64,000 bases of DNA, from the NCBI GenBank assembly GCA_043799405.1, contig JAZDNT010000004.1, forward strand, positions 4,206-68,205, given 5' to 3'. The notes under the pieces were generated by a model. The model ran no database searches and had not been told where the DNA came from. It worked only from the letters and a program-made list of their open reading frames with translations. Below are positions 15,932 to 37,017 of this stretch, piece by piece; positions within the stretch are counted from its first letter, which is position 1; the number at the start of each line of letters is the position of its first letter. The position numbers and the translations under genes were made by a program. Origin of the DNA: Candidatus Kerfeldbacteria bacterium (lineage in GTDB: Bacteria > Patescibacteriota > Patescibacteriia > SBBC01).

Positions 15932-16010
15932 TCCCGTTAGAGAGCCCTTATTCAACCCATCAGGTCATGTTCATCTTTCACATTTTTTACAAGCTGACTC
16001 TCTAACGGGA
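15932..16010. repeat. Inverted-repeat element, copy 2 of 3
   Basis: tcccgttagagag (15932-15944) and ctctctaacggga (15998-16010) flank a 53-nt core. The element fills the whole ATPase-permease intergenic gap, and the right arm abuts the permease ATG. Confidence 0.65.
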
Positions 16011-19423: not shown

Positions 19424-19432
19424 GACAGGCTC

Positions 19433-20665
19433 ATGCAAAAACTCGCACGTGAAGCGAAGAGCCCGACGTATGTTTCGCACATGCTCAAAAGTTACCAACG
19501 TGATAGAAAACGGTACCAATACATCTCACGCGAATGTAGCAGGGTCGCACGTCTCCGAAAATCTTCACCGAAACGGCTGCTGTCGCTCTATGAAAGGCTG
19601 AGGAACATCTACCTCGTCGTCCCCTACTACTTCTTCTCGCCATGGGCAATAAACCACGTAACAGCGCCGCAGTTCGAACAGCAACTAAGGAAACGATTCC
19701 CGAAGACCTGGCAATGGCTCTACCGCGCAGTTACCACGCCGACGAAATTGATCTCTATGGACCGGCAATACCTGCAGCTGCTTCGCTACAAGGCAGAGGG
19801 AACTCTCATAAAACGCCTGCCACAGCATGCGAAACGGTACGGATGGCTCGGTGTGTACAGCCTGCTCGACCGGCCATGGACCGGACGCCACTTCCTTTCA
19901 CAGGTCCGGCATGTCCGTGATCCGCGGCGTGCGATCGCCCAAAAACAGCGCGTGCTCGCAGAACACCGAAGGGAATATTCGCGCGCGCTCCGCATGCTGT
20001 TGCCGTATCCGAAGCTCGTTCACACCGCGCGGGTGCTCAATTTCTTCGCGTGGTTTCGGACCGAACGCGTTGATATGCTCCGGGAATCTCTCCTGCTCAC
20101 ACAAGCGTTCTACCATGAGCTCGAGCGTCGCATGCGGCTTCTGCCAAACCACGGACCGCACCTGACGTACGAAGAGATTGTGGAATTTTTGAAGGACGGG
20201 ACGCGACCAGACCCGCGCGCGATCGGGCCATGTCAGTTATTCGGCATCATCAACGACCGATTAGTGCTGATGCGTGACGAAGTCGAGGCAAAACGCTTCT
20301 TTGCACGAATTGTCGGTAACCGAGACATGCGTTCAAAACGATCGGTCAAGGGCACGCCTGCGTGTCCGGGAAAGGTGCACGGCCTAGTCCGTATCGTTAT
20401 GGTACCGGAGGACTGTAAAAAAATACGGAAGGGCGACATCCTCGTGTCGAACATGACGCACACCGACTACCTTGCTGGTATGGCACGTGCAGGCGCGGTC
20501 GTGACGGATGAAGGCGGTATCAGCTGCCATGCTGCCATAATATCGCGCGAGCTCAATAAACCCTGCGTCATCGGCACGAAAATCGCGACCGAGGTGTTCC
20601 GCGATAGCGACCGGGTCGAAGTGGACGCAAACCATGGAATCGTGCGATTATTAAAGCGTGGCTAA
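19433..20665 (+). CDS. Swivel-domain paralog P2 (main part)
   Basis: 410 aa. Mid-domain motif HAKRYGW; C-terminus [43 protein letters not shown]. Confidence 0.75.
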
Positions 20666-21767
20666 ACAATTCACTTCTCGCAGCAATTCGAACACGAAGA
20701 TTTTCCTGATTTTTACTCGGGACTTCTCGCTTGCGACGTGCGAGATATGGCAGGAAGTGCTTATTCGTCATCTGCCGCGGCTCGTCGGGCGCGGAATGCA
20801 CCAACAGATCATCCGATTTAACGGAAAGGCGATCGAGGCGTACCGGTCGGTGAATGAAGACGCGGTGCTCGAGCGTACCGTAACATCGCTGCCTCTTACG
20901 CATCGGGTTTTTCGTCCTTCATACGCGGCAACGTTCCGGAATACCATTGTACAAACAAGAAGAATGTTAACGTCGTACCGCAAAAATCACCGCGAATTGA
21001 CCACAAAGAGTCTCGAAGACCTTGATGCGCGCGTCACGAACGTCTGGTGCATGATGATGCTCTCGAACATGTTACCGCACGCATGGAAGGATTCGTTCAT
21101 GCGCACTCATCCAACAGGCGGACAAACGATTCTCAATTCATTCTACAGACTACGAAAGCTCAGTCAGGGCTTTATTGAGGAAGTCGACGGCTACTGGCTG
21201 GACAACGCAAAAAGACTGTTGCGTAAGCGAAAGCTCCCCGAATGGTACGCGCGATTGCTGCGTCGGAGCGAGTTGAGGGCGCTCGTCCGAGGCGGGAGAA
21301 TACCCAACAGCCAAGTATTCGAGCAACGCCGTCACGGGTACGTACTCTTCGGATTGAACACAGTAGTACATTCATCGTTCAATACGTTCCTAAAAAAACG
21401 ACATCAGTATATTCAGCCGCTCGGTAATATTCATAGTACAACGCTCAACGGGACAGTTGCTATGGCCGGACGACTGGTTCGCGCACGGGCACAGATCGTT
21501 CTCAACCGGGATGATGTTGCTCGCTTTTCAAAGAGGCGCATATTGGTAACGACGATGACGACACCGGATTTTCTGCCGATCATGAAACAGGCGTCGGCGA
21601 TCGTGACCGACGAGGGCGGAATCACCTGTCATGCCGCGATCGTCTCCCGCGAATTGAGGATCCCCTGTGTCATTGGCACGAAGATCGCGACGAAGATTAT
21701 AAAAAATGGCGATCGCGTTGAGGTGGACGCGAACCGCGGAATCGTGCGATTATTAAAGCGTGGCTAA
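20658..21767 (+). CDS. Swivel-domain paralog P3 (short, divergent N-terminal domain)
   Basis: 369 aa with a GTG start inside GTGGCTAA that overlaps the P2 stop. C-terminus [38 protein letters not shown]. Confidence 0.75.
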
Positions 21768-23214
21768 ACGATTCCGACCTCCATTCACGCCCGAATCCAA
21801 TCTTTTCCGGTGGGGACCTATCCCGGGTCGGCTGCTTTCAGTATCTCATTGGGTCGAGCTCTTCGATCGTCGGCCGAGCCGTTTCCACCAGTACTACTGG
21901 CCCTATAGTTTCACGATCTTCCACGACCGGCAGATGCTGTTCGTGAACGGCATGCACGACCTCGAGCGTGTCGGCGCGCGGGTGTTCCACGATTTCATCG
22001 TCGGACCGCGTCGGGAACGCGGGTGGCGGGAATGGCTACGGTGCCGAAACCGTCTTTTGGAATTCATCGCGGCGTTGAATCGGATCGACATCAGATCGTC
22101 ATCAGACGCACAGCTTACATCGCTCTGGCGCGGACTCAACGACCGCATCTACGCGTTCTGGACGCCAGGCGTCATCCCCGAACTCGGCGGGTACGGCGGT
22201 CAGGCGATACTGCGGCACATGCTGCAGCGCGAAAATCTCACGCCCGCCAAACGCATCCGCGCGTATGCAACGCTCTCTGGAACCGACAAACCATCATTCT
22301 ATCAGGAGGAGGAGGTCGCGCTTGCGGAAATCCTAAAGATCCGAAACCCGCAGGCTCGCGCACGAGCGCTCCAACGACACACTGAACGCTTTTCCTGGAT
22401 CGGTAACAGCTTCTTTAGAACGCAGAAGGTGCTGCTTGCCCGCTTCAAGGAACGGCTAGAGCTGTTGCGGCGTAAGAAGAGCCCTGCAATGCAATTACTG
22501 AAAAATTCTCGTGAACTCCGTCGCGACAAGAAAAAAGTCCTCGGATGGATGCAGAAACCGTCGCGGCTGCGTCTCATAAGCGACGGGGTTTCACGTTGCA
22601 TCTGGTGGCAGGACCAGAGGAAAAAGCATGTCTTTCAATACCTCGCACCCATGGATGCCATCGCGCGCGAAATGGAGCGACGCGCACGTATTCCGAAAAA
22701 CACCTTTGACTACGCGTACTTCTGGGAAGTCTCACCTCATCCGTCGCGACAACTGTTGAAGGCGATCGCGAGACGGAAACAGTGGTTCGTCACGAGGTGG
22801 TATGGCAGGCACATGGACGCCTCGGGAAAAGCTGCTCAACGTCTCGGCGAACCGTTCTGGAGGCCCCGACATGAACCATCAACTGACACCCTTCATGGTA
22901 TTCCGATCTTCACATCGATACGACCGATCAACGGCAGGGTGTTCATCGTCCGCACACACAGAGACCTTGCTCGTTTTCCCGCCGGACACGTACTCGTCGC
23001 AACAATGACCGCGCCGGAGTACGTGGTCGCCATGCGCAAGGCAGCCGCGATCGTCACGGACACTGGCGGCATCACGAGCCACGCAGCCATCGTCGCGCGC
23101 GAGCTCAAGAAACCGTGTATTGTCGGAACGCAGCAGGCAACGCACGTACTGAAAAACGGCGATCTTGTTGAAGTGCATTCGAGAGACGGCTACATTAAAA
23201 AGGTTGTAGAATAA
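21760..23214 (+). CDS. Swivel-domain paralog P4
   Basis: 484 aa with the same GTGGCTAA junction as P2/P3. Mid-domain motif HTERFSW; C-terminus [28 protein letters not shown]. Confidence 0.8.
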
Positions 23215-23218
23215 CGCT

Positions 23219-24751
23219 ATGGTGCTTAAAAAATACTTCGACCGAAAAGAAATGTACCTCTACCCATGGTACCTTTCTGATCTCGTTATTACCAAGCAGA
23301 TCGGCGCTGTCACCGGTCGCCGTATTATCCGGCGGGTCGTCACGGTCATCCACCGTGCATTCCTCACCGCGTACTACGACAATCGTGATGTCACATCGAT
23401 CGGCGAATATCTCTTTGGTCGGGTCTTACATGACCGACGTTTCTACCAACACGTTCTGAAGGAGGTCTATGCGCGAAGCGACAGGCTACAGGACTTTTGT
23501 TCTTCGATCCCGTCACCGTCCAAACTGCACACGCTCACATCGCAGAAATTACTGGACCTCTATGACCACTATACAACACTATTAACGAAACTCCGTGCAT
23601 GGGGATGGGTGCCCGTTTTCCTTGACGGCATCGATACGTCCTATCTATCTGAGGAGATCCAACGGAGGATCGAGGCACATCTGCGTGGTATCCGGACAAA
23701 ACCGGATACGGCGCTGAAGATATACGCAACGCTCACCAGCAGCGAACGCATGAGCGAGGTACAGCGCGAAGAAATTGCGCGCCTCAAACTCACTCAATCC
23801 ATTCACGACGATCCGCATTCAAAGACAATCCTGCGAGCTCTTACACGCGGAACATTCGACGTGCTGCGGAAACGATTTCCTGCGGTGATGAAGGTGTGTG
23901 AAAGGCATGTTGCGCGCTTCGGCTGGCTGACCTACGCATACAGCGGGCCGCCGATGGGTCTTTCGTACCTTGCCACGATGCTTTGTGCAACGATGAAGCA
24001 ACGCCCTGCACAACGCCTGCAGGAAATCCAGCGTCATTTTCTCACGATTCGTGCGGCAAAACGCGCCTTGATCCGGAAGTACCATCTTTCACCGGACATC
24101 CAATACCTCGTCAGGGTTTCTGCCGAACTAATGTACATGAAGGACTTTCGCAAGGGCGTATACCAGAAATCGTATGTGGCTATGGATCCGGTTCTTATCG
24201 AGATTGCAAAACGGCTCAACCTTACCCTGACCGAGGTCAAATACCTGACCTTTGACGAGATACGCAAAGCACTACGAGGCGCGTTTCGCGGCTATGCACA
24301 GGCTGCACGAAAACGTACAGAGTGGTGCGCATATGACATTCGGCACGGAAAGGTCCGTGTGCAAGGCGGTCACACTGCACAATGGATCGCACGCACACTT
24401 TCTTCAGGCGCGGCGGCGACGCAGCCGGCAGACTCCAACCTGCATGGTCAGGTCGCCTACCCGGGCATTGTCCGGGGAATCGCCCGGATCGTACTTCTTG
24501 AAAAGGACGTGCCAAAAGTGAAGCCCGGGGACATTCTGGTCTCATCATCCACCAACCCGAACCTCATCCTCGCCATGCAGCGCGCCGGAGCATTTGTCAC
24601 GGACATCGGCGGCATTACGAGCCATGCGGCCATTGTCTCACGGGAACTAAAAAAGCCGTGCATCGTCGGTACCAAAATCGCGACTAAAAGCATCCGCGAC
24701 GGTGATCGGCTCGAAGTCGACGCGAATCATGGTATAGTACGTAAACTATGA
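23219..24751 (+). CDS. Swivel-domain paralog P5
   Basis: 510 aa. Mid-domain motif HVARFGW; C-terminus [37 protein letters not shown]. Confidence 0.8.
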   Translation: MVLKKYFDRKEMYLYPWYLSDLVITKQIGAVTGRRIIRRVVTVIHRAFLTAYYDNRDVTSIGEYLFGRVLHDRRFYQHVLKEVYARSDRLQDFCSSIPSPSKLHTLTSQKLLDLYDHYTTLLTKLRAWGWVPVFLDGIDTSYLSEEIQRRIEAHLRGIRTKPDTALKIYATLTSSERMSEVQREEIARLKLTQSIHDDPHSKTILRALTRGTFDVLRKRFPAVMKVCERHVARFGWLTYAYSGPPMGLSYLATMLCATMKQRPAQRLQEIQRHFLTIRAAKRALIRKYHLSPDIQYLVRVSAELMYMKDFRKGVYQKSYVAMDPVLIEIAKRLNLTLTEVKYLTFDEIRKALRGAFRGYAQAARKRTEWCAYDIRHGKVRVQGGHTAQWIARTLSSGAAATQPADSNLHGQVAYPGIVRGIARIVLLEKDVPKVKPGDILVSSSTNPNLILAMQRAGAFVTDIGGITSHAAIVSRELKKPCIVGTKIATKSIRDGDRLEVDANHGIVRKL

Positions 24752-25350
24752 CCGACCCGATCCCGAAAAAATTCAGGTCGCTCTGGGCACGTTGCGTTAC
24801 ACTCCTAAAGCAGGGAAAGCCCGACGATCTTATGCATGCGCGGGAAACAGTCAGGCTGATCGTCGCCTATCGCGGCCGCCTCCGTTTTGATCCTGATATT
24901 CTGATACCCACCGCCATAATGCACGACATTGGACATTCGGCTATATTACCGGAGCATTTTCAATATGTCGCGGGGTCCAGAAAGTTCAAAAACGCAAAAC
25001 TTGTGCACATGCTTACCGGAGCTAAAATTGCCAATGAGCTCCTCCGGCAACTTCACTACCGTTCTACGGCAAGACGCGAGATCGTCGACATCATTTCGAT
25101 GCACGATATCGATCAATTAGACATCACGAACTGGCGCCGATGGTACGATACCCCGCACAAGCGCATCTTCCATGATTTTGATGCGCTCGATCGCTATACT
25201 CCTGTTCGGCTCAAAGTGATGATCACCCGCAACCCGAGTCGTACCGCGGTCCTAAAGGAACTTCGTGGTCTGCTTAACAACTTTTTCTTCAAAGAATTCA
25301 AACGCACCGCTGAGAGTAATCTTAATAAATTGGAAAAAAGCAATGATTGA
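24748..25350 (+). CDS. HD-domain phosphohydrolase
   Basis: 200 aa with AIMHDIGHS and ISMHDIDQLD. ATGA overlap with P5. Confidence 0.65.
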   Translation: MTDPIPKKFRSLWARCVTLLKQGKPDDLMHARETVRLIVAYRGRLRFDPDILIPTAIMHDIGHSAILPEHFQYVAGSRKFKNAKLVHMLTGAKIANELLRQLHYRSTARREIVDIISMHDIDQLDITNWRRWYDTPHKRIFHDFDALDRYTPVRLKVMITRNPSRTAVLKELRGLLNNFFFKEFKRTAESNLNKLEKSND

Positions 25351-25407
25351 CGTGAACAATACAAATAAAGAAGCATAAAAGCGCGCAGCCACTAGGAAAC
25401 CGTACTC

Positions 25408-26832
25408 ATGGACCCCACACCCTCGAACATGCTCAAAAAACACTGGTTTACCGCGGCGACGACCGGCGTTCCGCTGTTTATATGTACAACCGCAGGAAGC
25501 GGCGTCACCATGGGACGCTCCCTCGGATATAGTTACCGGAATTTCCTGTACCGCATCAAGAACGATTACGCGCACATGAATTACGACCATGCCGACCTAG
25601 AACGGATCTGGCGAACGATGATGAAGAAGATCGGGAAAAATCCTCACTACCTACCAGCCCTTAAAGCGAAGTACCGAAAAACAATACGCCGCAACAACCG
25701 GTTCCTAAAAACTATAACTCCGGTATCTCTGTGGTCAGCCGGTGATGCGCGCCTTCTCTCAATGTTTAAACGCTGTGCCTTTGCGCAGTCGGATTCGGTC
25801 GGCATTGGCCACGTCTGCGAAACCATCGGCATCCACGGCGAATCAGTGTTCAACGACCTGCTCGCGACCACGCTTCTAACACAGAAGAAAAGCGTGACTG
25901 CCGCGGTCGCGACATCGCTCACGGCTCCGAAAAAACCGTCGTTTCTAAAACACGAGGAACAGGAGCTTCTTACAATCGATGATCTTCGCGGAGTAGCGCG
26001 GTCGCAGGCGCTTCGACACCATGTCCGGAAATACAACTGGATCAGGAATACCTACGCTGGACCCGTGCTTTCCGATGCTGCCTATTTCACAAAACACCTC
26101 TTCACGCTCCGTACTGAACAGCAACCACGAATACAGAAAGCACGCGTTGCGCTGCCGCGGCTCCCCCGCTCGATCGTGGGACTCGCCCGGACCATCTCCT
26201 TCATCGCAGAATGGCAGGACGAACGCAAGGAAAACATCCTTCGCGTGATCTCCTACCTCGGTCTTATCGCGAAAGAAATCGAAAAAAGGACAAGAGTACC
26301 CATTTCGCTTCTCGGGTATCTTTCGCTCGGCGACATCACCAATCTGATGAACCTGGACGACATCAAATCACTGACGAACGAACTCCGTCAGCGGACGCGG
26401 GGATGCTTCATTCTCCAGCAACCGAACAGGGAGATCATAGTATCAGGAACGCGGTTCGTATCGTTCAATAAAGGGTACGAGCGCATGCTGAAGCGCGCAA
26501 AAGGCAACGAATCGTACATCTACGGTACGGTCGCCAATCCAGGACGAGCGGTCGGCCGCGTTGTCATGTGCCAAGGGCCGAAGGATATTTCCCGGGTCAG
26601 GCGCGGCGACATACTCGTTGCCTCAATGACGAGGCCGGAGATCATGCCGGCCGTAAAGAAGGCGTCGGCGATCGTGACGGACGAGGGCGGCATTACCTGC
26701 CACGCCGCCATCGTCTCCCGCGAACTCGGCATCCCCTGCATCATCGGTACGAAGGTGGCAACGAGCGTGCTCCGCGAAGGCGACCGCGTCGAGGTCAACG
26801 CGAATCATGGCGTCGTAAGGAAACTGCAATGA
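25408..26832 (+). CDS. Swivel-domain paralog P6
   Basis: 474 aa. Mid-domain motifs HVRKYNW and WQDERK; C-terminus [28 protein letters not shown]. Confidence 0.8.
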   Translation: MDPTPSNMLKKHWFTAATTGVPLFICTTAGSGVTMGRSLGYSYRNFLYRIKNDYAHMNYDHADLERIWRTMMKKIGKNPHYLPALKAKYRKTIRRNNRFLKTITPVSLWSAGDARLLSMFKRCAFAQSDSVGIGHVCETIGIHGESVFNDLLATTLLTQKKSVTAAVATSLTAPKKPSFLKHEEQELLTIDDLRGVARSQALRHHVRKYNWIRNTYAGPVLSDAAYFTKHLFTLRTEQQPRIQKARVALPRLPRSIVGLARTISFIAEWQDERKENILRVISYLGLIAKEIEKRTRVPISLLGYLSLGDITNLMNLDDIKSLTNELRQRTRGCFILQQPNREIIVSGTRFVSFNKGYERMLKRAKGNESYIYGTVANPGRAVGRVVMCQGPKDISRVRRGDILVASMTRPEIMPAVKKASAIVTDEGGITCHAAIVSRELGIPCIIGTKVATSVLREGDRVEVNANHGVVRKLQ

Positions 26833-28352
26833 AAACATCGTTCACCATCGTTGCGCACGACGTCAACTCGCCGCTCATTAGGAATGAGCTGTGGGTGCGC
26901 TACCCGATCCTCTGGAAAAAGCTGTTCGGACTTCCTATTGCAAGGGTCGCGATCTGGTCGAAGAACGACATGATCTCGTACTGCCTCAATGACCGTTCCT
27001 GGGTTGCGCCGAAAAAACAGTTCATACGGAGGATCGAGCGCGACCTTAATTACCTTCACGACATCATCGATCGCACAAACCGTTGGGGTGAAGAGATGAA
27101 TGCCGTGACTGAAATCGCAACAACAGCGCTGTTTCGGGTATGGTCACCCGAAGAGCTCATGCACTTCTTCGATGAATTTGTCCGGTTACAGACGAGACAG
27201 TACGCGATTGGCGTCCTACTGCCGCTCCTTGATTTCATCGGAAAATCCTACATTGAGAATTCGATCCAAACGTTCCTAACAAGCCGTCTACCGCCACAAC
27301 AGGCAGCCGACGCCTTTTCCCTCTTCACCGCCCCGGCGAATAAATCGTTCGCGCTTGAGCAGGAAGACGCGCTTCTCCGAATTGCGCAACGACTTTTCAG
27401 GGTACCATCTATTAAAAGGATGCTGTCAACGAAAAAACCAGCTGAAGTGCTGCGCCATCTCCGTTCAAAGCACCAGTCTCTTGCCTCGCTCATCGAGAAA
27501 CATGCAAAACGGTTCGGCTGGGTGTACTACGTCTATGCAGGCCCTGCGTATGAGCCGAAAGATTTCATCGGCTTTATACAGGACTGGTTGCGGCGGGGTA
27601 TCGATCCTAAACGCGAACTGAAGAAACGAGCCGCAGAACAACAAATGGTTCGGAAACGCCGGAACACATTACTAAAAAAGCTGAAGCCTGACCGCCTGAG
27701 CCGCGCCCTGCTCAAGCTTGCGCCCGTGATCGTCTGGGCAAAACCGCGGCGCAAGGACTACCAGTCGAAGACGTACTGGCACATGGAATTTTTTTACCGC
27801 GAAATCGCACGGCGCTATAAATACTCACTACAGCAGGTCCGTTCCGCGACTACACGACAGCTTTATTCGATTCTGCACGGACGCCGCGTTGCTTCAGCAT
27901 TACTCGACCGTCAGCGCCGTGAACACGTAACCTATAACGACGCTCACGGTATGCATGTCCTCACTGGGAACGCCGCTGCCCAGTTCGCAAAGCAACATTT
28001 TCATGAGGAACAACATGAAACGTCCTCGGACGGACAGCTGTCCGGCACTGTCGCCTACCAAGGAAGTTCAACGGGTACCGTCCGTATCATCAACACGCCA
28101 GACGACATGATAAAGATGCACCGCGGCGACATTCTCGTTTCATTTGCGACAACACCAAGCATTGTTCCAGCAATGAAGAAGGCATCGGCTATCGTAACGG
28201 ACGAAGGCGGACTCACCTGCCACGCGGCGATCGTTTCCCGCGAACTAAAGATACCGTGCGTCGTAGGTACTAAGATTTCAACGAAAGTACTTAAAGACGG
28301 CGACCGCGTCGAGGTGGACGCGGATAAAGGAATCGTCCGGAAACGTATATGA
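26829..28352 (+). CDS. Swivel-domain paralog P7
   Basis: I start at ATG 26829 (MKTSFTIVAHD.., ATGA overlap with P6), not at the track start 26568. Mid-domain motif HAKRFGW; C-terminus [28 protein letters not shown]. Confidence 0.8.
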   Translation: MKTSFTIVAHDVNSPLIRNELWVRYPILWKKLFGLPIARVAIWSKNDMISYCLNDRSWVAPKKQFIRRIERDLNYLHDIIDRTNRWGEEMNAVTEIATTALFRVWSPEELMHFFDEFVRLQTRQYAIGVLLPLLDFIGKSYIENSIQTFLTSRLPPQQAADAFSLFTAPANKSFALEQEDALLRIAQRLFRVPSIKRMLSTKKPAEVLRHLRSKHQSLASLIEKHAKRFGWVYYVYAGPAYEPKDFIGFIQDWLRRGIDPKRELKKRAAEQQMVRKRRNTLLKKLKPDRLSRALLKLAPVIVWAKPRRKDYQSKTYWHMEFFYREIARRYKYSLQQVRSATTRQLYSILHGRRVASALLDRQRREHVTYNDAHGMHVLTGNAAAQFAKQHFHEEQHETSSDGQLSGTVAYQGSSTGTVRIINTPDDMIKMHRGDILVSFATTPSIVPAMKKASAIVTDEGGLTCHAAIVSRELKIPCVVGTKISTKVLKDGDRVEVDADKGIVRKRI

Positions 28353-29866
28353 ACGCGGCACTGACAAGAATGATCAAGAAAACTGAATGGTACCGCCAAG
28401 GCGGCGCAATAACGCCGTGGTACGTATCGCCGCCATGGTCGGCAATTTCCCAGCCGACTGTATATGGGAAAAATACTCCGAGCATATTCGGGGAAGTTAT
28501 TTGTATTCACTTACCCGGTAATCACTGTCTGGCCTATTGGAAATCCGAAGGAATGCGCCGTGTCGCGCGGGATTACCTCGAACGGCAATGCCGTGATCAT
28601 ACCTTCGTCCAGAAACTGCATCGCAACTGGGAACGACGTGTGCTTCCGGTATTCAAACGCGACGTGACGACGATCTGCCGCACTGATCTGCGCGGTATGA
28701 CCAATGTCGAGCTCGAATCGATGGTCACGGGCTTCATGACGAATTTCCGGCTCGGATGGTCCGAGTCGATCTTTCATGACGCGTTCGATCTGGCGGGAAG
28801 CGAAATTCTTGAAAAAGAGTTCGTTCAGGGCGCCCCCCAGGTATCACCGGGACAGTTGGATCGCCTCCTCATGCCGACCGAACCGTTGATCATCCAACGC
28901 GAACGGATCGAACTCTCCGCGATCGCCTCGCGGGTAGGGCGAGGTCGGCTCCGTCGACTGGTGCTCGCTGATTCGTGGGCGACGATACAAAAGGAGTACG
29001 CATCGTTTTACAAGCGCATCGAAACGCACCGCAATGCGTGGAAATGGATGATGAACGATTACGAGCACGTTGTCGATCTACCGATTAACTGGTTCACTGT
29101 CAGGATTCGACGTTATGTGACGCGTCCGAGTGAGCTGCGGCGAGATCGGTCGATACCAATGCATCTTAGGAACGTACGTAAGACGAAACGTGCGCTCATG
29201 CATTCGCTCAAACTGACGTCGCGCCAGCGTGCAATAGTCGAGCTCCTGTCGACGGTCCAGGTGTGGCGCGACGAACGCAAGGCTATGATGACGCAATACG
29301 GCGGTACGGCACTGCGCCACATCGCCCAAGAACTCTCGCGTCGATTCCGCATACCATTGCGGCTGTTCCTGAACCTTTTTGTGTGGGAATTGCATGCGTT
29401 CATGTCCGCCCCGAATGCCATGCGCAACATACTCCGCGTTCGCAAATACGGCACGGTCCACGTCATCGTCAGTCCATCCAAAAAAACTATTGCGAACGGC
29501 AAGGCCAGCATACGGTACGAGCGTCTGCTTCGTCAGATGGTACAGAAACAAAAACTTCATGGCATGACTGCTTTTTCCGGTGTTGTACGAGGTAAAGCGC
29601 ATTTCATGCTGACGCAGTCGGACTTTCCCAAATTCAAACCCGGCGAGATCCTCATCGCGCCGAACACGCGCCCCGAGTACGTGCCGATCATGAAGAAAGC
29701 GGCGGGCATTGTCACTGAAGAAGGTGGCATTACAAGCCACGCCGCGATCGTCTCGCGCGAATTGCGGATTCCCGCCATTGTCGGCGTCCAAGGAATACTC
29801 GAAGCAGTTAAAAACGGCGACCGCGTTGAGGTTGATGCCGTTCATGGTATAGTACGGAAGCTATGA
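28349..29866 (+). CDS. Swivel-domain paralog P8
   Basis: 505 aa with an ATGA overlap. Motif WRDERK; C-terminus [28 protein letters not shown]. Confidence 0.8.
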   Translation: MNAALTRMIKKTEWYRQGGAITPWYVSPPWSAISQPTVYGKNTPSIFGEVICIHLPGNHCLAYWKSEGMRRVARDYLERQCRDHTFVQKLHRNWERRVLPVFKRDVTTICRTDLRGMTNVELESMVTGFMTNFRLGWSESIFHDAFDLAGSEILEKEFVQGAPQVSPGQLDRLLMPTEPLIIQRERIELSAIASRVGRGRLRRLVLADSWATIQKEYASFYKRIETHRNAWKWMMNDYEHVVDLPINWFTVRIRRYVTRPSELRRDRSIPMHLRNVRKTKRALMHSLKLTSRQRAIVELLSTVQVWRDERKAMMTQYGGTALRHIAQELSRRFRIPLRLFLNLFVWELHAFMSAPNAMRNILRVRKYGTVHVIVSPSKKTIANGKASIRYERLLRQMVQKQKLHGMTAFSGVVRGKAHFMLTQSDFPKFKPGEILIAPNTRPEYVPIMKKAAGIVTEEGGITSHAAIVSRELRIPAIVGVQGILEAVKNGDRVEVDAVHGIVRKL

Positions 29867-31404
29867 AACAGACGATCTGGCGAAAAAACTTTTCGATTAG
29901 CCGGACTGCGCTGCACATGCTGCCGCAGGCGATCGACAACATGGTACGGTACCAAAAAGAAACGATCGGCATTAATGCGCTCCGTGACGGCATTTCGGTT
30001 TTCCGCGGGTACGAGAACGAGATGTCGCTCATCCCCGTACGCGAGCTCCAAGCGATGGTCGAGGGTACGATCAATGCCATCCTCAAAAAACCCGCGCACA
30101 TCGAACAGATCCACCGGGATACTATACGGTATAACAACGAGTATTTCCGCTTTGCGCACATCGTGTACCATACCGACCTTTCCATGCTAACAACACAGCG
30201 ACTTATTGCGATATTCGAGAAATTAACACACTACCAAAAGATTACGCACGGTCTGTCGCTTCCGACAACCTGGTTCGTCGATTCGGACGGAGAGGATTTT
30301 TCAAAACTCCTCATCAAAAAAATCGAGAACCTCATTAAAATCCACGCATCTCGACGGAGCGTCGCTGAGGTGTTTAGTTCTCTCACGACGCCCGAAAAGA
30401 CGAGCTTTGCTATGCTCGAAGAAAAAGAATCGCTTCTCGTACTCAAGCGTCTCGCAGCCGATTCGCATGCGCGCGCACTGTTCCTCCGCTCCAACGTCAG
30501 CCGGATACGCAACAGCCTCTTGTCGTTGAAACCGGAGTTAAGAACGCTGATTCTCACCCACTATGAAAAGTGGCGATGGGTTCCGTACACCTACATTGGT
30601 CCGACGTATACGATCGACCACTACCTCGAAGAGTGGTCGAACATGCTTCGCAAGAAGGCCGATATCAGAAAACGTCTCCGGGAGCTCGAACGTTACCCCA
30701 TGATCGTGAAAGCAAAAAAGCAAAAGCTCATCCGCGAACTATCGATTGACCGCGCAACACAGCGACTCTTCGCGATCGCATCCGAGATCGTCTTCATCAA
30801 AGGGTACCGTAAGGATGTCCTGTACTATGGATGCTTCGTGCTTGAAAGGATCCACCGCGAGCTCATGCGACGGTTCCATCTTTCATTAAAGCAAATTAGG
30901 TTCATGACCGACCGCGAAGTCGTTAAGCTTATGCGACACGGTTCGTTCCCGAAACGCGTGCTCGATGAGCGTGCGAAGTTTTGCGTCTATCGGCAGCGGA
31001 ATTTACAGGGCACCATGCTCACCGGCATCACTGCAAGACGCCTGCTCGCATCGCTCACCATAGAGGAAGAAACGGTACGGGACGTGAACGTCCTTTCTGG
31101 TACGCCTGCCTGTCCCGGCTCGGCAAAGGGCATCGTCAGAATCATTAACGTGCCCGGCGACATGGATAAAATGCGGAAGGGCGACATCATGGTATCACAT
31201 ACGACATTCCCGGCACTGGTACCCGCGATGAAAAAGGCGTCGGCTATCGTGACTGATGATGGCGGTATCACCTGCCACGCAGCGATCGTCTCGCGCGAGC
31301 TCGGCACGCCCTGCGTTGTCGGGACGAAGATCGCAACAAAAATCCTCAAAGACGGCGACATCGTCGAGGTCGATGCGACGAACGGAACGGTACGGAAGCT
31401 GTGA
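29863..31404 (+). CDS. Swivel-domain paralog P9
   Basis: 513 aa with an ATGA overlap. Mid-domain motif HYEKWRW; C-terminus [28 protein letters not shown]. Confidence 0.8.
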   Translation: MKQTIWRKNFSISRTALHMLPQAIDNMVRYQKETIGINALRDGISVFRGYENEMSLIPVRELQAMVEGTINAILKKPAHIEQIHRDTIRYNNEYFRFAHIVYHTDLSMLTTQRLIAIFEKLTHYQKITHGLSLPTTWFVDSDGEDFSKLLIKKIENLIKIHASRRSVAEVFSSLTTPEKTSFAMLEEKESLLVLKRLAADSHARALFLRSNVSRIRNSLLSLKPELRTLILTHYEKWRWVPYTYIGPTYTIDHYLEEWSNMLRKKADIRKRLRELERYPMIVKAKKQKLIRELSIDRATQRLFAIASEIVFIKGYRKDVLYYGCFVLERIHRELMRRFHLSLKQIRFMTDREVVKLMRHGSFPKRVLDERAKFCVYRQRNLQGTMLTGITARRLLASLTIEEETVRDVNVLSGTPACPGSAKGIVRIINVPGDMDKMRKGDIMVSHTTFPALVPAMKKASAIVTDDGGITCHAAIVSRELGTPCVVGTKIATKILKDGDIVEVDATNGTVRKL

Positions 31405-32009
31405 CCCATCCAAGGATCAAGCTCGTCCTCTGGGACTTCAACGGCGTCGTCGTGAACGGTGATCATGCCATTCTATCCCGACACTTTGGCCGCATCCACG
31501 GCACTCCCTGGCAGAAGGTGTACGCGATTCTGTATACGAAGTACCTCAATCTCTACGCCATGAATAGGATCACCGACCGCGAGGCGTGGGAAGGCCCCAT
31601 CCGCGAGCTCGGCTGGAAGCAGGATTGGCAAAAGATGAAATGGTGGTACCTGAACCGGCAGCGGCTGCAAAAGACGGTCATCGCGTACGTCCAGACGCTC
31701 CGGCGGCGCGGCTACGCTTGCGCAGTCATCAGCAAAAACATCACTACGTGGTTTGCATACTTGAGGAAACGTCTCGGATTTGAAAAATATTTTGACGGTG
31801 TCGTAGAAACGCAGTCGCTCAATCTGCCGAAATCGAGTCCTCAGACCGTCCGCTATCTCTGTAAGCGTTTCAAGGTCAAACCGAACGAGATCGTCTACAT
31901 CGACGACCAGGCAGCCAACCTCAAGGCACCTAAGCAAATGGGCGTCAACACGATCCTCTACCGAAACCTCACGCAGTGCCGGCGCGAACTCACGAAACTT
32001 CTGGACTAA
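31401..32009 (+). CDS. HAD-superfamily hydrolase-like protein
   Basis: 202 aa with a GTG start overlapping the P9 stop (GTGA). The motif I-like sequence LVLWDFNGVVV has Asn at the second Asp position. A motif IV-like VYIDDQAANL is also present. Confidence 0.55.
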   Translation: MTHPRIKLVLWDFNGVVVNGDHAILSRHFGRIHGTPWQKVYAILYTKYLNLYAMNRITDREAWEGPIRELGWKQDWQKMKWWYLNRQRLQKTVIAYVQTLRRRGYACAVISKNITTWFAYLRKRLGFEKYFDGVVETQSLNLPKSSPQTVRYLCKRFKVKPNEIVYIDDQAANLKAPKQMGVNTILYRNLTQCRRELTKLLD

Positions 32010-32944
32010 GCGCCTACTTTCTCGACCTTCTGCCGTGTAGCGTATTCTTCAGAAAGCAATCCAAGCTCTGCAAGGTCAACGTCATATTCGGTTCCTCGAA
32101 GCATCATTTTAACGGACGACAGCTTCCCTTCGTCATCGCGGCGTATGACAAAATCGACATTGTCAGTCGGTTTGAACGCTCCGCCGATCTCATCGAGGTT
32201 TTTAAATCCCCGTACCGTCTCATTACCGACCGTTCGCATCACTACCTCACGGATAAACGGCTCGATCTTTGGTCCGTGCGTTACATTCTCAAGTTTGACA
32301 TTCGAACCATCATAAAGGTGGCCCGACATTTCGAGATAATGCTGCAGGAGATGGCCGAGGTCTTGCGCGCACTCTCGCGCCGTCTGTCCGCCCGCCGCTT
32401 TAACCTGCTCGGAACCATCAAGGTACGCTTGAATTTGATAATCGAGTTTGTGTGGTTTATCAAGTTCGCCAGCAGCAATCATGGCATCTGCGCGCTTCCC
32501 TGCATCCATCCAAAACGGCGCGACATTCTTCACCGTCATCAATTCTTCCCTCGTCCTGATATTATAGGTCCGTGCTCCGCGTGACGTTCTGACCTCTTCG
32601 TCACCGATTTCAGCGACTTTTCGATTAATGACCGTCGCGCCGGTATTTTGAAGCCCGATATCAATGGTATCTTTCGCGCGTTCAAGTTTTGAAGAATACC
32701 CTTTGACCACTGGCGCCTCATCGTCCGGCCCTTCAAACGCAGCGCCGAGCGCTGCGGCCTGCTCGATGCCCTTGGACGAAAGCTTATCCGCACTCATGCC
32801 TGTCGCAGGATTGACTTCGGGATCGGCGTGGCGGCGGAATGATACGGTCACCTCAACGTTTTTCCCAAATTCCTGTTTCTCCTTGGTTGGATCGCCCTCA
32901 AACGGTAGTTCGCCATTACCTGATCGCATAGAATATCCTTTCAT
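32006..32944 (-). CDS. Divergent histidine-phosphatase-superfamily protein
   Basis: 312 aa with FRRHADPE (RHG-like), YSSKLERAKDT (S-x-x-x-RA-x-x-T-like) and ENVTHGP (second His). Confidence 0.5.
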   Translation of the reverse strand: MKGYSMRSGNGELPFEGDPTKEKQEFGKNVEVTVSFRRHADPEVNPATGMSADKLSSKGIEQAAALGAAFEGPDDEAPVVKGYSSKLERAKDTIDIGLQNTGATVINRKVAEIGDEEVRTSRGARTYNIRTREELMTVKNVAPFWMDAGKRADAMIAAGELDKPHKLDYQIQAYLDGSEQVKAAGGQTARECAQDLGHLLQHYLEMSGHLYDGSNVKLENVTHGPKIEPFIREVVMRTVGNETVRGFKNLDEIGGAFKPTDNVDFVIRRDDEGKLSSVKMMLRGTEYDVDLAELGLLSEEYATRQKVEKVGA

Positions 32945-33108
32945 TAAGTATTGTTACACTAACCCCTAATCCCGCATCACGTCAATTGTCGAAATCGCAA
33001 TTTCGTATGTCAAAACCGGTACGCTCATCACCCGAAGGGTAAATGTTGCGTACCGATCCTTGCGCCGTGTGGCGCCCTTCAAATGAACGATGTTTGCTGC
33101 CCGTGGTC

Positions 33109-33756
33109 CTACTCGACTTCGGGACAGCGGAACGTCATCTGCGGCTCTTCCCGCAGCACGAGCAGGCCTTCAGCCGTCTCTTCCATCGTGTAGCGGATTG
33201 CGTCGCATGGCCCAAGGCACATCTGCGCCCGGGGATCGGACGCGCGCAGCTCCACGAAGGGACTGTGCGAGACTATCAGCACGAAGACCTCGTCGAGATC
33301 CTCGATCTGCGTCGCCAGCCAGGGGTTGGTGGTGAGGAAGTAAACTGCCTTGGCCATGGCCAGCTCGATCTTGAAACGGCGGGCACCCGCAACCCAGCCC
33401 CACCCCTGAAACCAGTCGAAGGCCGGGGTTTCGGTGTGGGCACGACCGGCCTGCGCCGTCGTCTTCGCCACCTCGAAGGGGATGATCGGTAGGGCCGGAT
33501 TCTCGCCGTCCTCCGTGCCGATCACGTTCAGCGGCGGGAAGCACATCGGGCTCTCGCTGACGCCGAGCACCCTGGCCATGATCTGCGCGGTGTCGCGCGT
33601 GCGCTCCGTGTCGCTATGCAGCACGAGACTGTACGGCGTGCCGCGGAGGGTGAAGGCCATACGCTCGGCCTGCATTCGTCCCCGATCCGTCAGATGACGT
33701 CCGGGCGTGTTGTCCGTCTCGCCGTGACGGGCGCAATCGAAGATGAACCTCCTCAT
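33109..33756 (-). CDS. Histidine phosphatase family protein (phosphoglycerate-mutase-like)
   Basis: 215 aa with CARHGETDN, LTDRGRMQAE, HSDTERTRDTAQI and IVSHSPF. GC is clearly higher than the neighbouring genes (hand counts 63-75% on two lines). Confidence 0.7.
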   Translation of the reverse strand: MRRFIFDCARHGETDNTPGRHLTDRGRMQAERMAFTLRGTPYSLVLHSDTERTRDTAQIMARVLGVSESPMCFPPLNVIGTEDGENPALPIIPFEVAKTTAQAGRAHTETPAFDWFQGWGWVAGARRFKIELAMAKAVYFLTTNPWLATQIEDLDEVFVLIVSHSPFVELRASDPRAQMCLGPCDAIRYTMEETAEGLLVLREEPQMTFRCPEVE

Positions 33757-33893: not shown

Positions 33894-33982
33894 GTCAACC
33901 CCGTTAGAGAGTCGCATGGAAAAACTAGGTACGCGTAACAACTAATGAAAATAGTAATAAGGGGCTCTCTAACAGGGTCAAT
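33894..33982. repeat. Inverted-repeat element, copy 3 of 3
   Basis: gtcaaccccgttagagag (33894-33911) and ctctctaacagggtcaat (33965-33982) flank a 53-nt AT-rich core. Confidence 0.7.
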
Positions 33983-34177
33983 ACACTTGACAAATAGGTG
34001 TTATTGGCATAAATTGCTTTATAGACAATATCTATTCAATTCCAAGCAATATTACGATTTTCCCCTAGAAAATCGTAACACTGAGCGCAGCGAAGTGTCT
34101 CCACATTGCTGTTGTCTGAATGGAGATCCCTCACTCCGTTCGGGAATGCAAAGTCAACCATTAATTAACATCGCACT

Positions 34178-36079
34178 ATGCTCGAAGAACTCCTTAATTC
34201 AAGAACGCGCGTAAAGGTCCTCTCGCTATTCTTCCATGATGAGCGGCATGATTACTACTCGCAGGAGGTCATCAGTGCGACCGGCGGGGATCCCGCAAAC
34301 GTACATCGTGAACTCACGAAGCTCGTAAAGCTCGGCGTGCTCGCGATGACGCAAAAGGGCACGCGAAAGTTTTACTGCCTCGATCCCCGCTCCCCTTTCC
34401 ATAAGGGGCTACGGGAGCTCATTCTCGCATCAGGGGAAAAGAAAAAAGAGCGACAAGAGGAGTTCCGATACCTCAACGACGGCGATCCATGGATGCTCGC
34501 GGAGAACATCCCTGATATCGACCTGTTCTTTTCCCAGATCTTCCTGTCGTGCTTCGCAAACGAGTTTTCTGCGTTCACCGGTCGCGCGTACTCAAAAGTG
34601 TTGACGATCTACCGCGGTTATCATTTCTGGTTCTACTATGGAGAAAAGGATTCGAACGAAGTCGGAAACCGGATCGCCGAACGATTCATCAAGGAGCCTT
34701 CATTCGCGTCCCGCGTGAACCGCGAGATCGTTGCTGAAGCAAAAACGCTCGAACGGTTCGCTGCAACGCTTCCCGAAGACGGACTCTCAAAGCTCTCGAA
34801 CGAAAGGCTCTGGCGACTGTACAAAAAACACGACGACGTGCATACGGCATACTACCGATGGGGCTGGATCCCCGTTGCCGCTGATATGTTCCACAATAAC
34901 TTCACTGATGCGCTGTACAAGGAACTTCGTCGTTTAAAGGTCCCTGAAACAAAGATCAACGCGTACTTCGCTACCCTGACACAGCCGACGGACCGCTCCC
35001 CAATCCAGAAGGAGCGCGAGGAGTTCCTCAACATTGCGCGTTCGATACTGGAAGACCCGTACCATCGGACGCTCTTCAAGGAACTGTACGCCGTGTTCGA
35101 AGAGCAGGACGTGAGCCGTATGACGCTTGCCCCGCATACGCCGCAGTATGAACGGACGCTTGAACAACGCGCGCGGTCGCTCCGCTCGAAGATCAAACCG
35201 ACGATCTTCAGGCTCATCGAGCGCCACTACGAACGGTACTTCTTCGTCAAGCACATGTGGATCGGGAAGGATGGCGTCTACACATTCGATTACTACCTGA
35301 AGGAACTCGTGAAACTCATCGGAAGGAATTCCGATGTACGCGTGATACTCGATGAGGCGGAAAAGGAGCAGGCTGACGCGTTGCGGAAAAAACAAGCGCT
35401 CATGAATACACTGAGGCTTACTCCGTCATGGCGGAGCATATTCAACTCGTTCGGCGACTTCATGGTTACGAAGATAATTCGACGTTTTGCACAGATATAC
35501 GCGATCTACCGTATGCAGCCGACCCTCGAAGAGATCGCGCGGCGCCTTAAGATCGACCTGAAGCGCGTTCGGTTCATGCTGACGAGTGAATTCGAGCAAG
35601 CCCTCCTCCACAACGTGATCGATCGGAACGAACTTGAGGAACGAACAAAGTTCTGCGCGTACTACGTCGAGAAAGGCCGCGAGGCGGTATTCACCGGCGA
35701 CGAAGCCGAACGTCTTGCCGCCGCAGTGCAACCGAAGGACGTTAAGGCGACAGATTCGTTCACCGGCCAGATCGGGTGCATGGGAAAAGGGAGGGGGACG
35801 GTTCGGATCATCAACCGACCGTCGGACATGACAAAGATGAAGAATGGTGATGTGCTCGTTTCGATCGCGACCGATCCGGACATCGTCCCGGCAATGAAGA
35901 AGGCCGCGGCGATCGTTACGGAACAGGGCGGCGTAACCTCGCATGCAGCCATCGTCTCCCGGGAACTCGGTATTCCCTGTGTCATCGGCACGAAGATCGC
36001 GACGAGGGTGCTCAAAGACGGCGACCTCGTGGAGGTTGACGCGAACCATGGAACTGTGACGATAATAAGAAAGAAATGA
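34178..36079 (+). CDS. Swivel-domain paralog P10 with an N-terminal winged-helix (ArsR-like) DNA-binding domain
   Basis: 633 aa. N-terminus LLNSRTRVKVLSLFFHDERHDYYSQEVISATGGDPANVHRELTKLVKLGVLAMTQKGTRKFYCL. Mid-domain motif HYERYFF; C-terminus [28 protein letters not shown]. Confidence 0.8.
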   Translation: MLEELLNSRTRVKVLSLFFHDERHDYYSQEVISATGGDPANVHRELTKLVKLGVLAMTQKGTRKFYCLDPRSPFHKGLRELILASGEKKKERQEEFRYLNDGDPWMLAENIPDIDLFFSQIFLSCFANEFSAFTGRAYSKVLTIYRGYHFWFYYGEKDSNEVGNRIAERFIKEPSFASRVNREIVAEAKTLERFAATLPEDGLSKLSNERLWRLYKKHDDVHTAYYRWGWIPVAADMFHNNFTDALYKELRRLKVPETKINAYFATLTQPTDRSPIQKEREEFLNIARSILEDPYHRTLFKELYAVFEEQDVSRMTLAPHTPQYERTLEQRARSLRSKIKPTIFRLIERHYERYFFVKHMWIGKDGVYTFDYYLKELVKLIGRNSDVRVILDEAEKEQADALRKKQALMNTLRLTPSWRSIFNSFGDFMVTKIIRRFAQIYAIYRMQPTLEEIARRLKIDLKRVRFMLTSEFEQALLHNVIDRNELEERTKFCAYYVEKGREAVFTGDEAERLAAAVQPKDVKATDSFTGQIGCMGKGRGTVRIINRPSDMTKMKNGDVLVSIATDPDIVPAMKKAAAIVTEQGGVTSHAAIVSRELGIPCVIGTKIATRVLKDGDLVEVDANHGTVTIIRKK

Positions 36080-37017
36080 CTACCTTCACGAAGACATTCC
36101 GACAGCTCTCAAGGGCCGACGTCGGGATCGCCGGCGGCAAGGGCGCTAGTTTGGGCGAGATGACGCATGCCGGCATTCCTGTCCCGCCCGGATTCGTCGT
36201 ATTGGCCTCTGCGTTCGACCGGTTCCTGCACGAGAGCCAGCTCGATGTCGAGATCGAATCGATCCTCCACCTTCTCAAACACACCGATGTGAACGCTGTC
36301 GACCGAGTATCGAACGAGATCCGCGAACTCATCCTCGACGAGGAAATGCCGAAAGATTTGGGCAAAGAGATCATGAAGCAATTCGCATCGCTCCGGTCAC
36401 CTGCCGTTGCCGTCAGAAGTTCGGCCACTGCGGAGGATTCCTCGGTCGCATCGTGGGCAGGCGAACTTGAATCGTACCTGAACGTCAAAAAGGCGGGCGT
36501 ACTCGATGCTGTAAGAAAATGCTGGTCGTCGCTCTTCACGCCGCGCGCAATCTTCTACCGTTTTGAGAAGAAGCTACATAAACAAAACGTATCAGTCGCA
36601 GTCGTCGTGCAGGCAATGGTTCAGTCCGAGACGTCCGGCATCTGCTTCACGGTCCATCCGGTCACCAAAGACTACGACCAGATGGTCATCGAAGCTGGCT
36701 GGGGTCTCGGCGAAGCGATCGTCGGAGGGAAGATCACGCCGGACACCTTCGTGATCCATACGACCGACTGGACCATCCTCGATGCCAGTATAAGCGAGCA
36801 GACAATGATGATCGTCCGGGGGCCGGAAGGGACCGTCGAGAAAAAAGTACCAGCGGCAAGAGCGAACAAGCAAAAACTGCCAAACAGCGTTGTCATGAAG
36901 CTTGCGAAGATCTGCAAGCACATAGAGGAGCACTATGGAAAACCGCAGGACATCGAATGGGCGTACCGAAACAAAAAGTTCTACATTGTCCAGTCAAGGC
37001 CGATTACAACGCTGTAA
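36076..37017 (+). CDS. Stand-alone PPDK_N-type ATP-grasp (nucleotide-binding) domain of PEP synthase / pyruvate-phosphate dikinase
   Basis: 313 aa with an ATGA overlap to P10. Motifs: VGIAGGKGASLGEMTHAGIPVPPGFVV, VAVRSSATAEDS, VAVVVQAMV, QDIEWAYRNKKFYIVQSRPIT. The protein ends at the domain boundary, with no His or TIM-barrel domain. Confidence 0.85.
   Translation: MTTFTKTFRQLSRADVGIAGGKGASLGEMTHAGIPVPPGFVVLASAFDRFLHESQLDVEIESILHLLKHTDVNAVDRVSNEIRELILDEEMPKDLGKEIMKQFASLRSPAVAVRSSATAEDSSVASWAGELESYLNVKKAGVLDAVRKCWSSLFTPRAIFYRFEKKLHKQNVSVAVVVQAMVQSETSGICFTVHPVTKDYDQMVIEAGWGLGEAIVGGKITPDTFVIHTTDWTILDASISEQTMMIVRGPEGTVEKKVPAARANKQKLPNSVVMKLAKICKHIEEHYGKPQDIEWAYRNKKFYIVQSRPITTL

Follow-up and report, generated by a model that had tools for sequence, protein, structure and literature searches.

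Split dikinases have been established experimentally with HpeHI, CreHI and the phenylphosphate synthase PpsAB, in which the I or B subunit is an ATP-grasp protein and the H or A subunit joins a substrate-binding domain resembling that of RPH to a swivel domain (PMC12167813). In their reaction ATP pyrophosphorylates a histidine, the gamma-phosphate is hydrolysed and the beta-phosphate is passed on to the substrate (PMC12167813). HpeH occurs as a mixture of monomers and dimers, and a Met is found two residues before the catalytic His in both RPH and HpeH (PMC12167813). We analyzed a 64,000-nt stretch of DNA from a Candidatus Kerfeldbacteria bacterium (contig JAZDNT010000004.1), in the following called the window, which contains a gene, P10, encoding an H-like carrier with a winged helix-turn-helix (wHTH) domain at its N-terminus. 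Judged from sequence comparison and structure prediction, P10 is likely to be the substrate-binding and phospho-carrier subunit of a split dikinase of the RPH/HpeHI type and at the same time a wHTH autoregulator of its own operon. The gene, its domains and its partner gene are arranged as follows:

34178..36079, plus strand: wHTH-P10 gene, ATG start, TGA stop, 633 aa; ArsR-type wHTH, helical domain resembling the rifampin-binding (RIF-binding) domain, and His swivel domain
34178..34438, plus strand: winged helix-turn-helix domain, aa 1-87, with recognition helix aa 39-51, wing aa 55-68 and fifth helix aa 75-86
34439..34489, plus strand: linker, aa 88-104, of low confidence (AlphaFold pLDDT)
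34490..35755, plus strand: helical domain resembling a substrate-binding domain, aa ~105-526; its homologues are HpeH and the rifampin-binding domain of RPH (Foldseek)
35756..36076, plus strand: phosphohistidine swivel domain, aa ~527-633 (PF00391, GGVTSH motif)
35942-35944, plus strand: codon of the catalytic His589 within GGVTSH
36076..37017, plus strand: ATP-grasp (PPDK_N) partner subunit (PF01326, E=2e-102, complete domain)

As in HpeHI, CreHI and PpsAB, the ATP-grasp subunit is encoded separately, the second subunit consists of an RPH-like helical domain and a C-terminal swivel, the catalytic His lies in a GGxxxH motif at most 50 residues from the C-terminus, and the two genes are adjacent. 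An original prediction, made from the letters of the sequence, had proposed that P10 overlaps the ATP-grasp gene, and stop and start codon indeed share an ATGA in gaaATGAct. This ATP-grasp gene is the only one found among the window open reading frames (ORFs) scanned, and no terminator was found after it. The described HpeHI, CreHI and PpsAB systems have no DNA-binding domain, use phenolic substrates, come from Actinobacteria and Proteobacteria and contain one H per I subunit, whereas the P10 system has an N-terminal wHTH, counts ten H-like paralogues per I-like gene, belongs to Patescibacteria and carries Thr instead of Met before the His. This Thr (T587), two residues before His589 in GGVTSH (window 35936-35944), is kept in the carrier paralogues whose motif was retrieved (8 of 10, P10 included). 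P10 thereby resembles phosphoenolpyruvate (PEP) synthase and PPDK, which have a Thr with a regulatory phosphosite at the same position.

The best structural match of P10 residues ~105-633 was RPH-Lm (PDB 5fbu, 5hv1), found by Foldseek with E~1e-12 over ~600 columns at an identity of only 15%. We propose for P10 the RPH-Lm chemistry, in which ATP gives rise to His~P and then to the phosphorylated substrate plus AMP and Pi. RPH is a single chain with the order ATP-grasp, RIF-binding and swivel domain, whereas the genes are split in the P10 system. P10 was rejected as an RPH itself on the grounds of this split and of a score of 73.7 bits against the cut-off of 999 for NF041857. Assignment as PEP synthase or PPDK was rejected too: PF00391 is the only domain of these enzymes matched in P10 (aa 555-625, E=3e-26), there is no TIM-barrel domain, and PRK06464 reaches 126 bits against a cut-off of 598, over residues 529-627 only. 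The sequences of P10 and the ATP-grasp protein would fit a small-molecule dikinase of the split HpeHI/CreHI/PpsAB type.

Ten swivel-domain genes are present in the window, with starts at 17838, 19433, 20658, 21760, 23219, 25408, ~26830, 28349, 29863 and 34178. The core of P10 is 26-33% identical to the paralogues P4, P5, P7, P8 and P9 over 390-550 aligned aa and retains His589 in GGVTSH, as had been predicted for the part of the protein beyond the wHTH. Against P5, P10 aligns from residue 91 onwards, which marks the first ~90 aa as an added module; it is absent from the other nine window paralogues. Across 78 orthologues the swivel residues G584, G585, T587, H589, R595 and E596 are invariant, and the catalytic motif is invariant alike in fused and unfused orthologues. 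About half of 80 related loci have an ATP-grasp gene no further than 10 kb away. We also came across a 902-aa protein, P0034, in which an N-terminal module (of the YYYL type described below), the core, the swivel and a PPDK_N ATP-grasp domain are naturally fused. The order of its swivel and ATP-grasp domain is deduced from the length of 902 aa and the Pfam list, which put the ATP-grasp domain last, whereas it comes first in RPH. The fusion supports the pairing of the P10 orthogroup with an ATP-grasp protein.

We then assessed the nature of the N-terminal module. Searches with the single sequence returned sub-threshold matches, to DUF7342 and HVO_A0114 in Pfam and to ArsR_Rv2640c and HTH_metalloreg in NCBIfam, each at E~1e-3, and the N-terminus alone gave no match among PDB sequences. 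The PADLOC model PDC-M05A, which describes a ~200-aa wHTH-nucleotidyltransferase protein, matched P10 aa 2-82 with E=2.4e-14; the wHTH of these MNT-type nucleotidyltransferase proteins is the closest sequence relative of the P10 wHTH. Among 13 orthologous N-termini, six matched HTH_20 (PF12840, best E=2.5e-7) and five matched HTH_5/ArsR (PF01022), and a profile built from them found the structures of ArsR (6j05, E=5e-4), MarR, CadC and SmtB. L5, S8, L15, D38, N41, R44, E45 and L46 are invariant in the alignment of these 13 sequences.

AlphaFold modelled full-length P10 from the 78-sequence alignment with a pLDDT (predicted local distance difference test score) of 90.8 and a pTM (predicted template modelling score) of 0.79, the isolated N-terminal domain reaching a pLDDT of 85. 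The N-terminus is composed of helices 9-20, 28-35 and 39-51, a beta-hairpin of strands 55-60 and 63-68, and a helix 75-86. In the linker the mean pLDDT per block is 64 for aa 81-90 and 72 for aa 91-100, with aa 88-92 below 50. Foldseek searches with the isolated domain returned ArsR/SmtB repressors throughout: AntR with a TM-score of 0.77 and a root-mean-square deviation (rmsd) of 2.3 A, and further CadC, YgaV, SqrR, SmtB, HlyU, BigR and PagR, the ArsR-family matches ranging over TM 0.6-0.77 and rmsd 1.6-3 A with a probability of 1.00. When the full model was used, the N-terminus again matched ArsR-family proteins. The orthologue profiles, the PADLOC match and the predicted structure thus support an ArsR-type winged helix, as had been predicted for the first ~90 aa.

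ArsR/SmtB repressors such as AntR, CadC, SmtB, SqrR and BigR share with P10 the five-helix winged helix with a C-terminal helix, and they bind palindromic sites at their own promoter, as we predict for P10. They differ from it in their effector module: P10 has no metal- or thiol-sensing residues, and in place of sites in the wHTH dimer there is an enzyme of ~540 aa. Neither an alpha3N Cys motif nor an alpha5 His/Asp/Glu site was found, the alignment of N-termini showing no conserved Cys/His cluster, and the sole N-terminal Cys (C67) gives way to R, K, F, T, V or E in all orthologues except P0005. Since metal and thiol ligands are not conserved, the module is considered an ArsR-fold DNA-binding domain and not a metal sensor.

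The fusion is not confined to the window. A search of 5.8 billion proteins yielded 172 matches, from Patescibacteria and DPANN archaea; an exact look-up of the P10 protein itself gave no record. Most of the matches are ~536-541 aa long and 50-62% identical to the P10 core, far above the identity to the in-genome paralogues, which shows that the P10 orthogroup is ancient and conserved. Twelve matches cover 100% of P10 including the wHTH and come from independent NCBI, ENA, JGI and Logan assemblies. We further collected 170 relatives from GTDB species-representative genomes and classified the best 80 loci, which comprise 26 wHTH-fused, 8 carrying a different module of ~45 aa and 46 unfused genes. 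The fusion is therefore real and common and no artefact, and the two findings that could have overturned the original prediction, an N-terminus that is not a wHTH or a fusion unique to this assembly, were not obtained. In the closest relatives the gene order is a divergent histidine-phosphatase gene, wHTH-P10, 0-3 genes, the ATP-grasp gene, and genes for a GalU-like protein, a solute-binding protein and a peptidoglycan-binding/pilin protein; synteny with the window is kept in loci L006-L010. The more distant L001 contains an array of six paralogues with HAD, PPDK_N and acylphosphatase genes.

Alignment of the region upstream of P10 with the three nearest relatives revealed a conserved promoter, TTGACAAA-N17-TAAATT, followed by conserved sequence up to the ATG. 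The following elements were assigned:

33987..34015, plus strand: sigma-70-type promoter, -35 box TTGACA at 33987-33992, 17-nt spacer, -10 box TAAATT at 34010-34015; conserved in relatives
34013..34029, no strand: predicted operator 1 (op1), ATTGCTTTATAGACAAT, 13/14 consensus positions, overlapping the -10 box
34034..34050, no strand: predicted operator 2 (op2), ATTCAATTCCAAGCAAT, 10/14, degenerate, 21 bp from op1

In wHTH-fused orthologues with 40-75% protein identity to P10, a TTGACA/-10 promoter is combined with two 17-bp palindromes of the form ATTGTYT-N3-ARACAAT (consensus site of the L059 type: ATTGTCTTATAGACAAT). The first palindrome shares bases with the -10 box, and the second reaches as far as the start codon. 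We scored the 14 specified positions and counted a match at 12 or better. Of 25 fused GTDB loci, 21 have palindromes no more than 200 nt upstream, as do L008, L010 and the window, whereas none of 54 non-wHTH loci has one between -250 and +30 (Fisher p=1.7e-15). They are nearly the sole matches in each ~20-kb locus; the background in the non-wHTH loci amounts to 51 matches in 828 kb, or 0.06 sites per kb. Where sites occur in pairs they are exactly 21 bp apart in 17/17 cases. T2, T3, C14 and A15 of the palindrome never vary, and 34 of 35 sites have G4. The clade of the window uses a symmetric variant of the half-site, ATTGC...GCAAT, which is perfect and unique in each of L006-L010 at the P10 promoter. 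Recognition-helix residues showed no clean correlation with the half-site variants.

In a neighbor-joining tree of the core, the wHTH-fused proteins fall into at least four groups interleaved with unfused ones and yet share one motif, indicating that the motif travels with the domain and not with the clade. Within the window op1 is the only match of at least 13/14 in 64 kb, with 0 expected. The original prediction had suggested looking for palindromic operators upstream of P10 and of two further carrier genes; they were found at the P10 promoter, and upstream of 17838 and 25408 no operator of 11/14 or better was present. Its wider claim that P10 regulates the locus as a whole is not borne out, the only strong match in the 64 kb being P10's own promoter. 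A weak ATTG-N9-CAAT at 32985-33001, upstream of a histidine-phosphatase gene (32006-32944), was dismissed as chance level. Taken together, the motif data strongly indicate that P10 would bind DNA sequence-specifically at its own promoter.

A non-autoregulatory role of the wHTH has to be weighed against this. The domain could tether the enzyme to DNA or chromatin carrying a DNA-associated substrate, or it could serve dimerization or protein interaction, winged helices being known to mediate protein contacts in some cases. In that case the palindromes at the promoter would be the sites of some other factor, or they would work as RNA hairpins; since part of them would be transcribed, they could fold, as is predicted for the leader of the window. 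We regard this explanation as very improbable: the palindromes occur only together with a fused wHTH, they are the only strong matches in loci of ~20 kb and show the geometry of a dimer operator at -10/+1, the recognition-helix residues D38, N41, R44, E45 and L46 are invariant, and different DNA-binding modules on the same core bring different repeats, as described further below.

Several observations weigh against autoregulation by the P10 wHTH. Its N-terminus stays below the curated cut-offs of Pfam and NCBIfam, with 19 bits against the 55 to 155 bits of models such as NF033788 and NF041413. Op2 of the window is degenerate, and 127 inserted nt lie between the operators and the start codon; in this genome, control may therefore be weaker or different. 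L012 and L071 have weak sites only. The association between motif and fusion could also partly reflect shared promoter ancestry.

In the mechanism that we infer for P10 as an autoregulatory carrier, two P10 dimers would bind the two 17-bp palindromes, which at a spacing of 21 bp lie on the same face of the DNA. As the sites extend over the -10 box and on to the start codon, bound P10 would block access of RNA polymerase. P10 would thus probably repress its own operon, the translationally coupled ATP-grasp gene included, whose product would be needed by all ten carrier paralogues. P10 would come off the DNA when substrate occupies the helical domain or when His589 is phosphorylated. P10 would then be an enzyme-repressor, or trigger enzyme, of the BirA/PutA/NadR type. 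In BirA, PutA, NadR and the ROK repressors Mlc and NagC, an N-terminal DNA-binding domain sits on an enzyme or an enzyme-derived sensor and represses its own operon. P10 resembles them in logic; the enzyme folds are unrelated, and the likeness is one of analogy and not of homology.

Relatives of the wHTH bear on the nature of the releasing signal. An exhaustive profile search with the wHTH matched 5064 representatives (E<=1e-3). Members of this wHTH subfamily sit on distantly related carrier paralogues of ~580-607 aa (ten in the top 150), on MNT-type nucleotidyltransferases and on small stand-alone proteins. Six cluster representatives (P0139, P0141, P0142, P0144, P0148 and P0177) are colinear with P10 residues 1-630; they keep the wHTH, have GGxTxH replaced and possess no catalytic His. 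Such His-less relatives are probably pure regulators, that is pseudo-enzymes, as their sequences suggest, and would be comparable to the members of the ROK family that are catalytically dead and act as pure regulators. Since colinear wHTH relatives persist without the catalytic His, ligand occupancy is favored over His~P as the general signal that would control these proteins.

A switch gated by His~P is also conceivable for P10, though we consider it unlikely. Here the phosphorylation of His589, set by the ATP-grasp protein and by discharge to the substrate, would control DNA binding and report the balance between ATP-grasp activity and substrate supply, in the manner of the PRD regulators of the phosphotransferase system (PTS). 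Full conservation of the swivel domain and catalytic motif in fused orthologues speaks for such a switch, as do the translational coupling to the ATP-grasp gene and the Thr in GGVTSH, a regulatory site in PEP synthase and PPDK and a Met in RPH and HpeH. The six His-less representatives, which keep wHTH and core, argue that phosphorylation is no universal signal. No structural link between swivel and wHTH is seen, and the linker is predicted to be flexible. PRD regulators such as MtlR, LicT and LevR control transcription through His phosphorylation by a relay of the PEP-utilizer family; P10 is unlike them in that its phospho-His domain is the swivel itself, and no PRD, EIIA or EIIB match was found in P10 with Pfam.

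At the other extreme P10 could be a pseudo-enzyme without turnover, its helical domain serving as nothing but the ligand-binding module of a one-component transcription factor. His-less wHTH relatives do exist and nine other carrier paralogues would be available for catalysis. The P10 core, however, shares 50-62% identity with unfused orthologues and keeps all invariant catalytic residues, and it is P10 whose translation is coupled to that of the only ATP-grasp gene, which makes a pure sensor decidedly improbable.

A far-reaching extension, to which we attach a low probability, would see the wHTH-dikinase carrier as a new class of one-component transducer. The swivel phosphohistidine would gate operator binding, being charged by the shared "general" ATP-grasp subunit and discharged onto a scavenged metabolite. 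The operon would feed a single ATP-grasp protein to 6-10 substrate-specific carriers in a PTS-like hub-and-spoke system specific to Patescibacteria and DPANN, with P10 as the master valve.

The same core also occurs with other N-terminal modules: an XRE-type helix-turn-helix (HTH_3, E=3e-19), the ~45-aa module MVKALIELDDETNKILNLVKAKHGLKDKGQAIEYIVKKF in archaea, and the YYYL module, which is characterized by KKxYYYLxxSxR. Orthologues with the 45-aa module are preceded, from the TATA box to the ATG, by 2-3 tandem ACTAAGT repeats with a period of 10 in 6 of 8 loci (L015, L023, L030, L039, L042 and L045, all DPANN orthologues). These repeats score 13-14 of 14, and elsewhere in 1.29 Mb only chance-level 12/14 matches were seen. 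The likeness of this module to a ribbon-helix-helix (RHH) consists of a beta-alpha-alpha pattern, one NCBI name (DUF2683) and the tandem-repeat sites only; there was no match in Pfam, NCBIfam or PDB profiles, and hhalign against CopG gave none. For the YYYL module no family match was obtained either. The RHH-like and YYYL modules are therefore putative DNA-binding modules, in contrast to the ArsR wHTH and XRE HTH modules, which are confirmed by sequence or structure matches.

Each of the remaining modules is likewise accompanied by repeats of its own. At L165 (1096-5744) two adjacent XRE-HTH-fused carrier paralogues are followed by PPDK_N. One XRE-fused orthologue has AATTACGA-N10-TCGTAATT around the -10 box, and a second, adjacent XRE-fused paralogue has two GACTAC/GTAGTC palindromes. 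Two archaeal genes with the YYYL module (L167 and L169, around 2900-3000) share TTACCCTTT-N~20-AAAGGGTAA, placed immediately before the TATA box. Beside the P10 orthologue there is a second carrier paralogue with a fused wHTH at L052 (~11951), L065 (~11983), L066 (~11984), L069 (~12235), L075 (~11975) and L080 (~5619). Each has its own palindrome between -10 box and ATG, with arms of 9 to 11 nt and distinct 11-5-11 forms, implying that operator specificities may have diverged inside one locus. The combination of different modules with different cognate repeats at their own promoters is the signature of autoregulators.

The enzyme half of P10 is of a known split-dikinase kind and its DNA-binding half has the known ArsR fold. 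In the literature searched we found no description of a wHTH combined with a dikinase carrier, nor of a carrier repeated with four module types each having its own cognate repeat. Patescibacteria and DPANN have tiny genomes with few recognizable regulators, yet up to ten RPH/HpeH-like carriers per ATP-grasp gene, and one deeply conserved member of the array appears to have repeatedly acquired DNA-binding modules, each with its own promoter repeat motif. The PEP-utilizer superfamily would thus gain a new enzyme-repressor architecture. A concrete pair of operator and regulator becomes available where almost none is known, and owing to the double operator the wHTH-carrier P10 is directly testable. 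It also offers a handle on the substrates, as a substrate or product is expected to be what frees the repressor from the DNA.

Two further elements lie in the region upstream of P10:

33895..33981, no strand: inverted-repeat (IR) element copy 3, just upstream of the -35 box (element 33899-33977 with flanking TCAA duplication)
34053..34179, plus strand: window-specific insertion of 127 nt between op2 and start codon (alignment with relatives)

The IR element is present in the window at 5981-6060, 15931-16011 and about 33898-33978. Copy 3 is located 200-280 nt upstream of P10, consistent with the distance of about 200 nt given by the original prediction. The element has terminal arms of 12-13 nt, CCCGTTAGAGAG and CTCTCTAACGGG, and a variable interior of ~50 nt, giving a total of 74-82 nt; six arm matches were counted in the window against 0.3 expected. 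At the P10 promoter the element is present in the window and L008 and absent in L006/L011 and L010; comparison with the empty site TTGTCAATACC shows that TCAA is duplicated in the filled one. A metagenome scan identified 83 copies on 74 contigs (loci L091-L164), some in tandem 6 nt apart. Every copy is bordered by 4-bp direct target-site duplications that differ in sequence between copies; most are TTGA/TCAA, which forms part of a TTGAC resembling a -35 box. Conservation is much higher in the arms than in the interior, an unusual feature for a simple miniature inverted-repeat transposable element (MITE). The element behaves as a mobile, MITE-like repeat and not as a control site of P10. In view of its absence from the same promoter in close relatives, its variable 4-bp duplications and its dispersal over 74 unrelated contigs, we rejected it as an operator.

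The 127-nt insertion sits between an ancestral CAATAT and the G of the start codon; TAT repeats flank it and the ATG is regenerated. Its RNA is predicted to fold strongly, into three hairpins (z=-4.35), the first of which is a perfect 11-5-11 palindrome at 34052-34078, TTACGATTTTC-CCCTA-GAAAATCGTAA, arranged like the predicted operators that precede the second wHTH paralogues. It was rejected as an ancestral operator, as it lies inside an insertion found in the window only. Neither an Rfam family nor another copy of the insertion in the window was found. In two more fused loci, beyond the 21 with sites inside 200 nt (L046 ~2374-2778 and L048 ~9660-10001), a small ORF, with a C-terminus that looks GIY-YIG-like by eye, separates the operators, at -320 to -404, from the start of wHTH-P10. 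Together with the insertion in the window, this suggests that the position immediately ahead of the start codon is prone to insertions.

Divergent to P10 lies the neighbor that is shared with the closest relatives:

33109..33756, minus strand: histidine-phosphatase-family gene (Pfam)

The window has two histidine-phosphatase genes in all, and further genes encode HD and HAD proteins. No PADLOC match was obtained with either phosphatase, with the ATP-grasp protein, with the P10 core or with the one other carrier paralogue searched, and on this basis a reading of the locus as a defence system was rejected. Arrays of up to 10 swivel-carrier paralogues per single ATP-grasp gene (window 17838-31404 and 34178-37017; loci L001 and L012-L090), interspersed with HAD, HD, histidine-phosphatase and acylphosphatase genes, are a recurrent locus type of Patescibacteria. 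The paralogue arrays with one ATP-grasp gene suggest a hub-and-spoke dikinase system for many substrates. It is a matter of speculation that the phosphatase-rich neighborhood (HAD, HD and histidine phosphatase, in L001 also acylphosphatase) fits a turnover of phosphorylated small molecules.

At window 7477-8262, upstream of the ABC-transporter and dikinase region, lies a gene for a transcriptional regulator of the TrmB family (PF01978, E=7e-14), and a TrmB gene is near a carrier paralogue in the archaeal locus L004 as well. Finally, a short frame at window ~17490-17840, just upstream of paralogue P1, joins the N-terminus of an ABC ATPase (Walker A, GRNGAGKST) in frame to the C-terminus of a swivel domain and is probably a recombination remnant.

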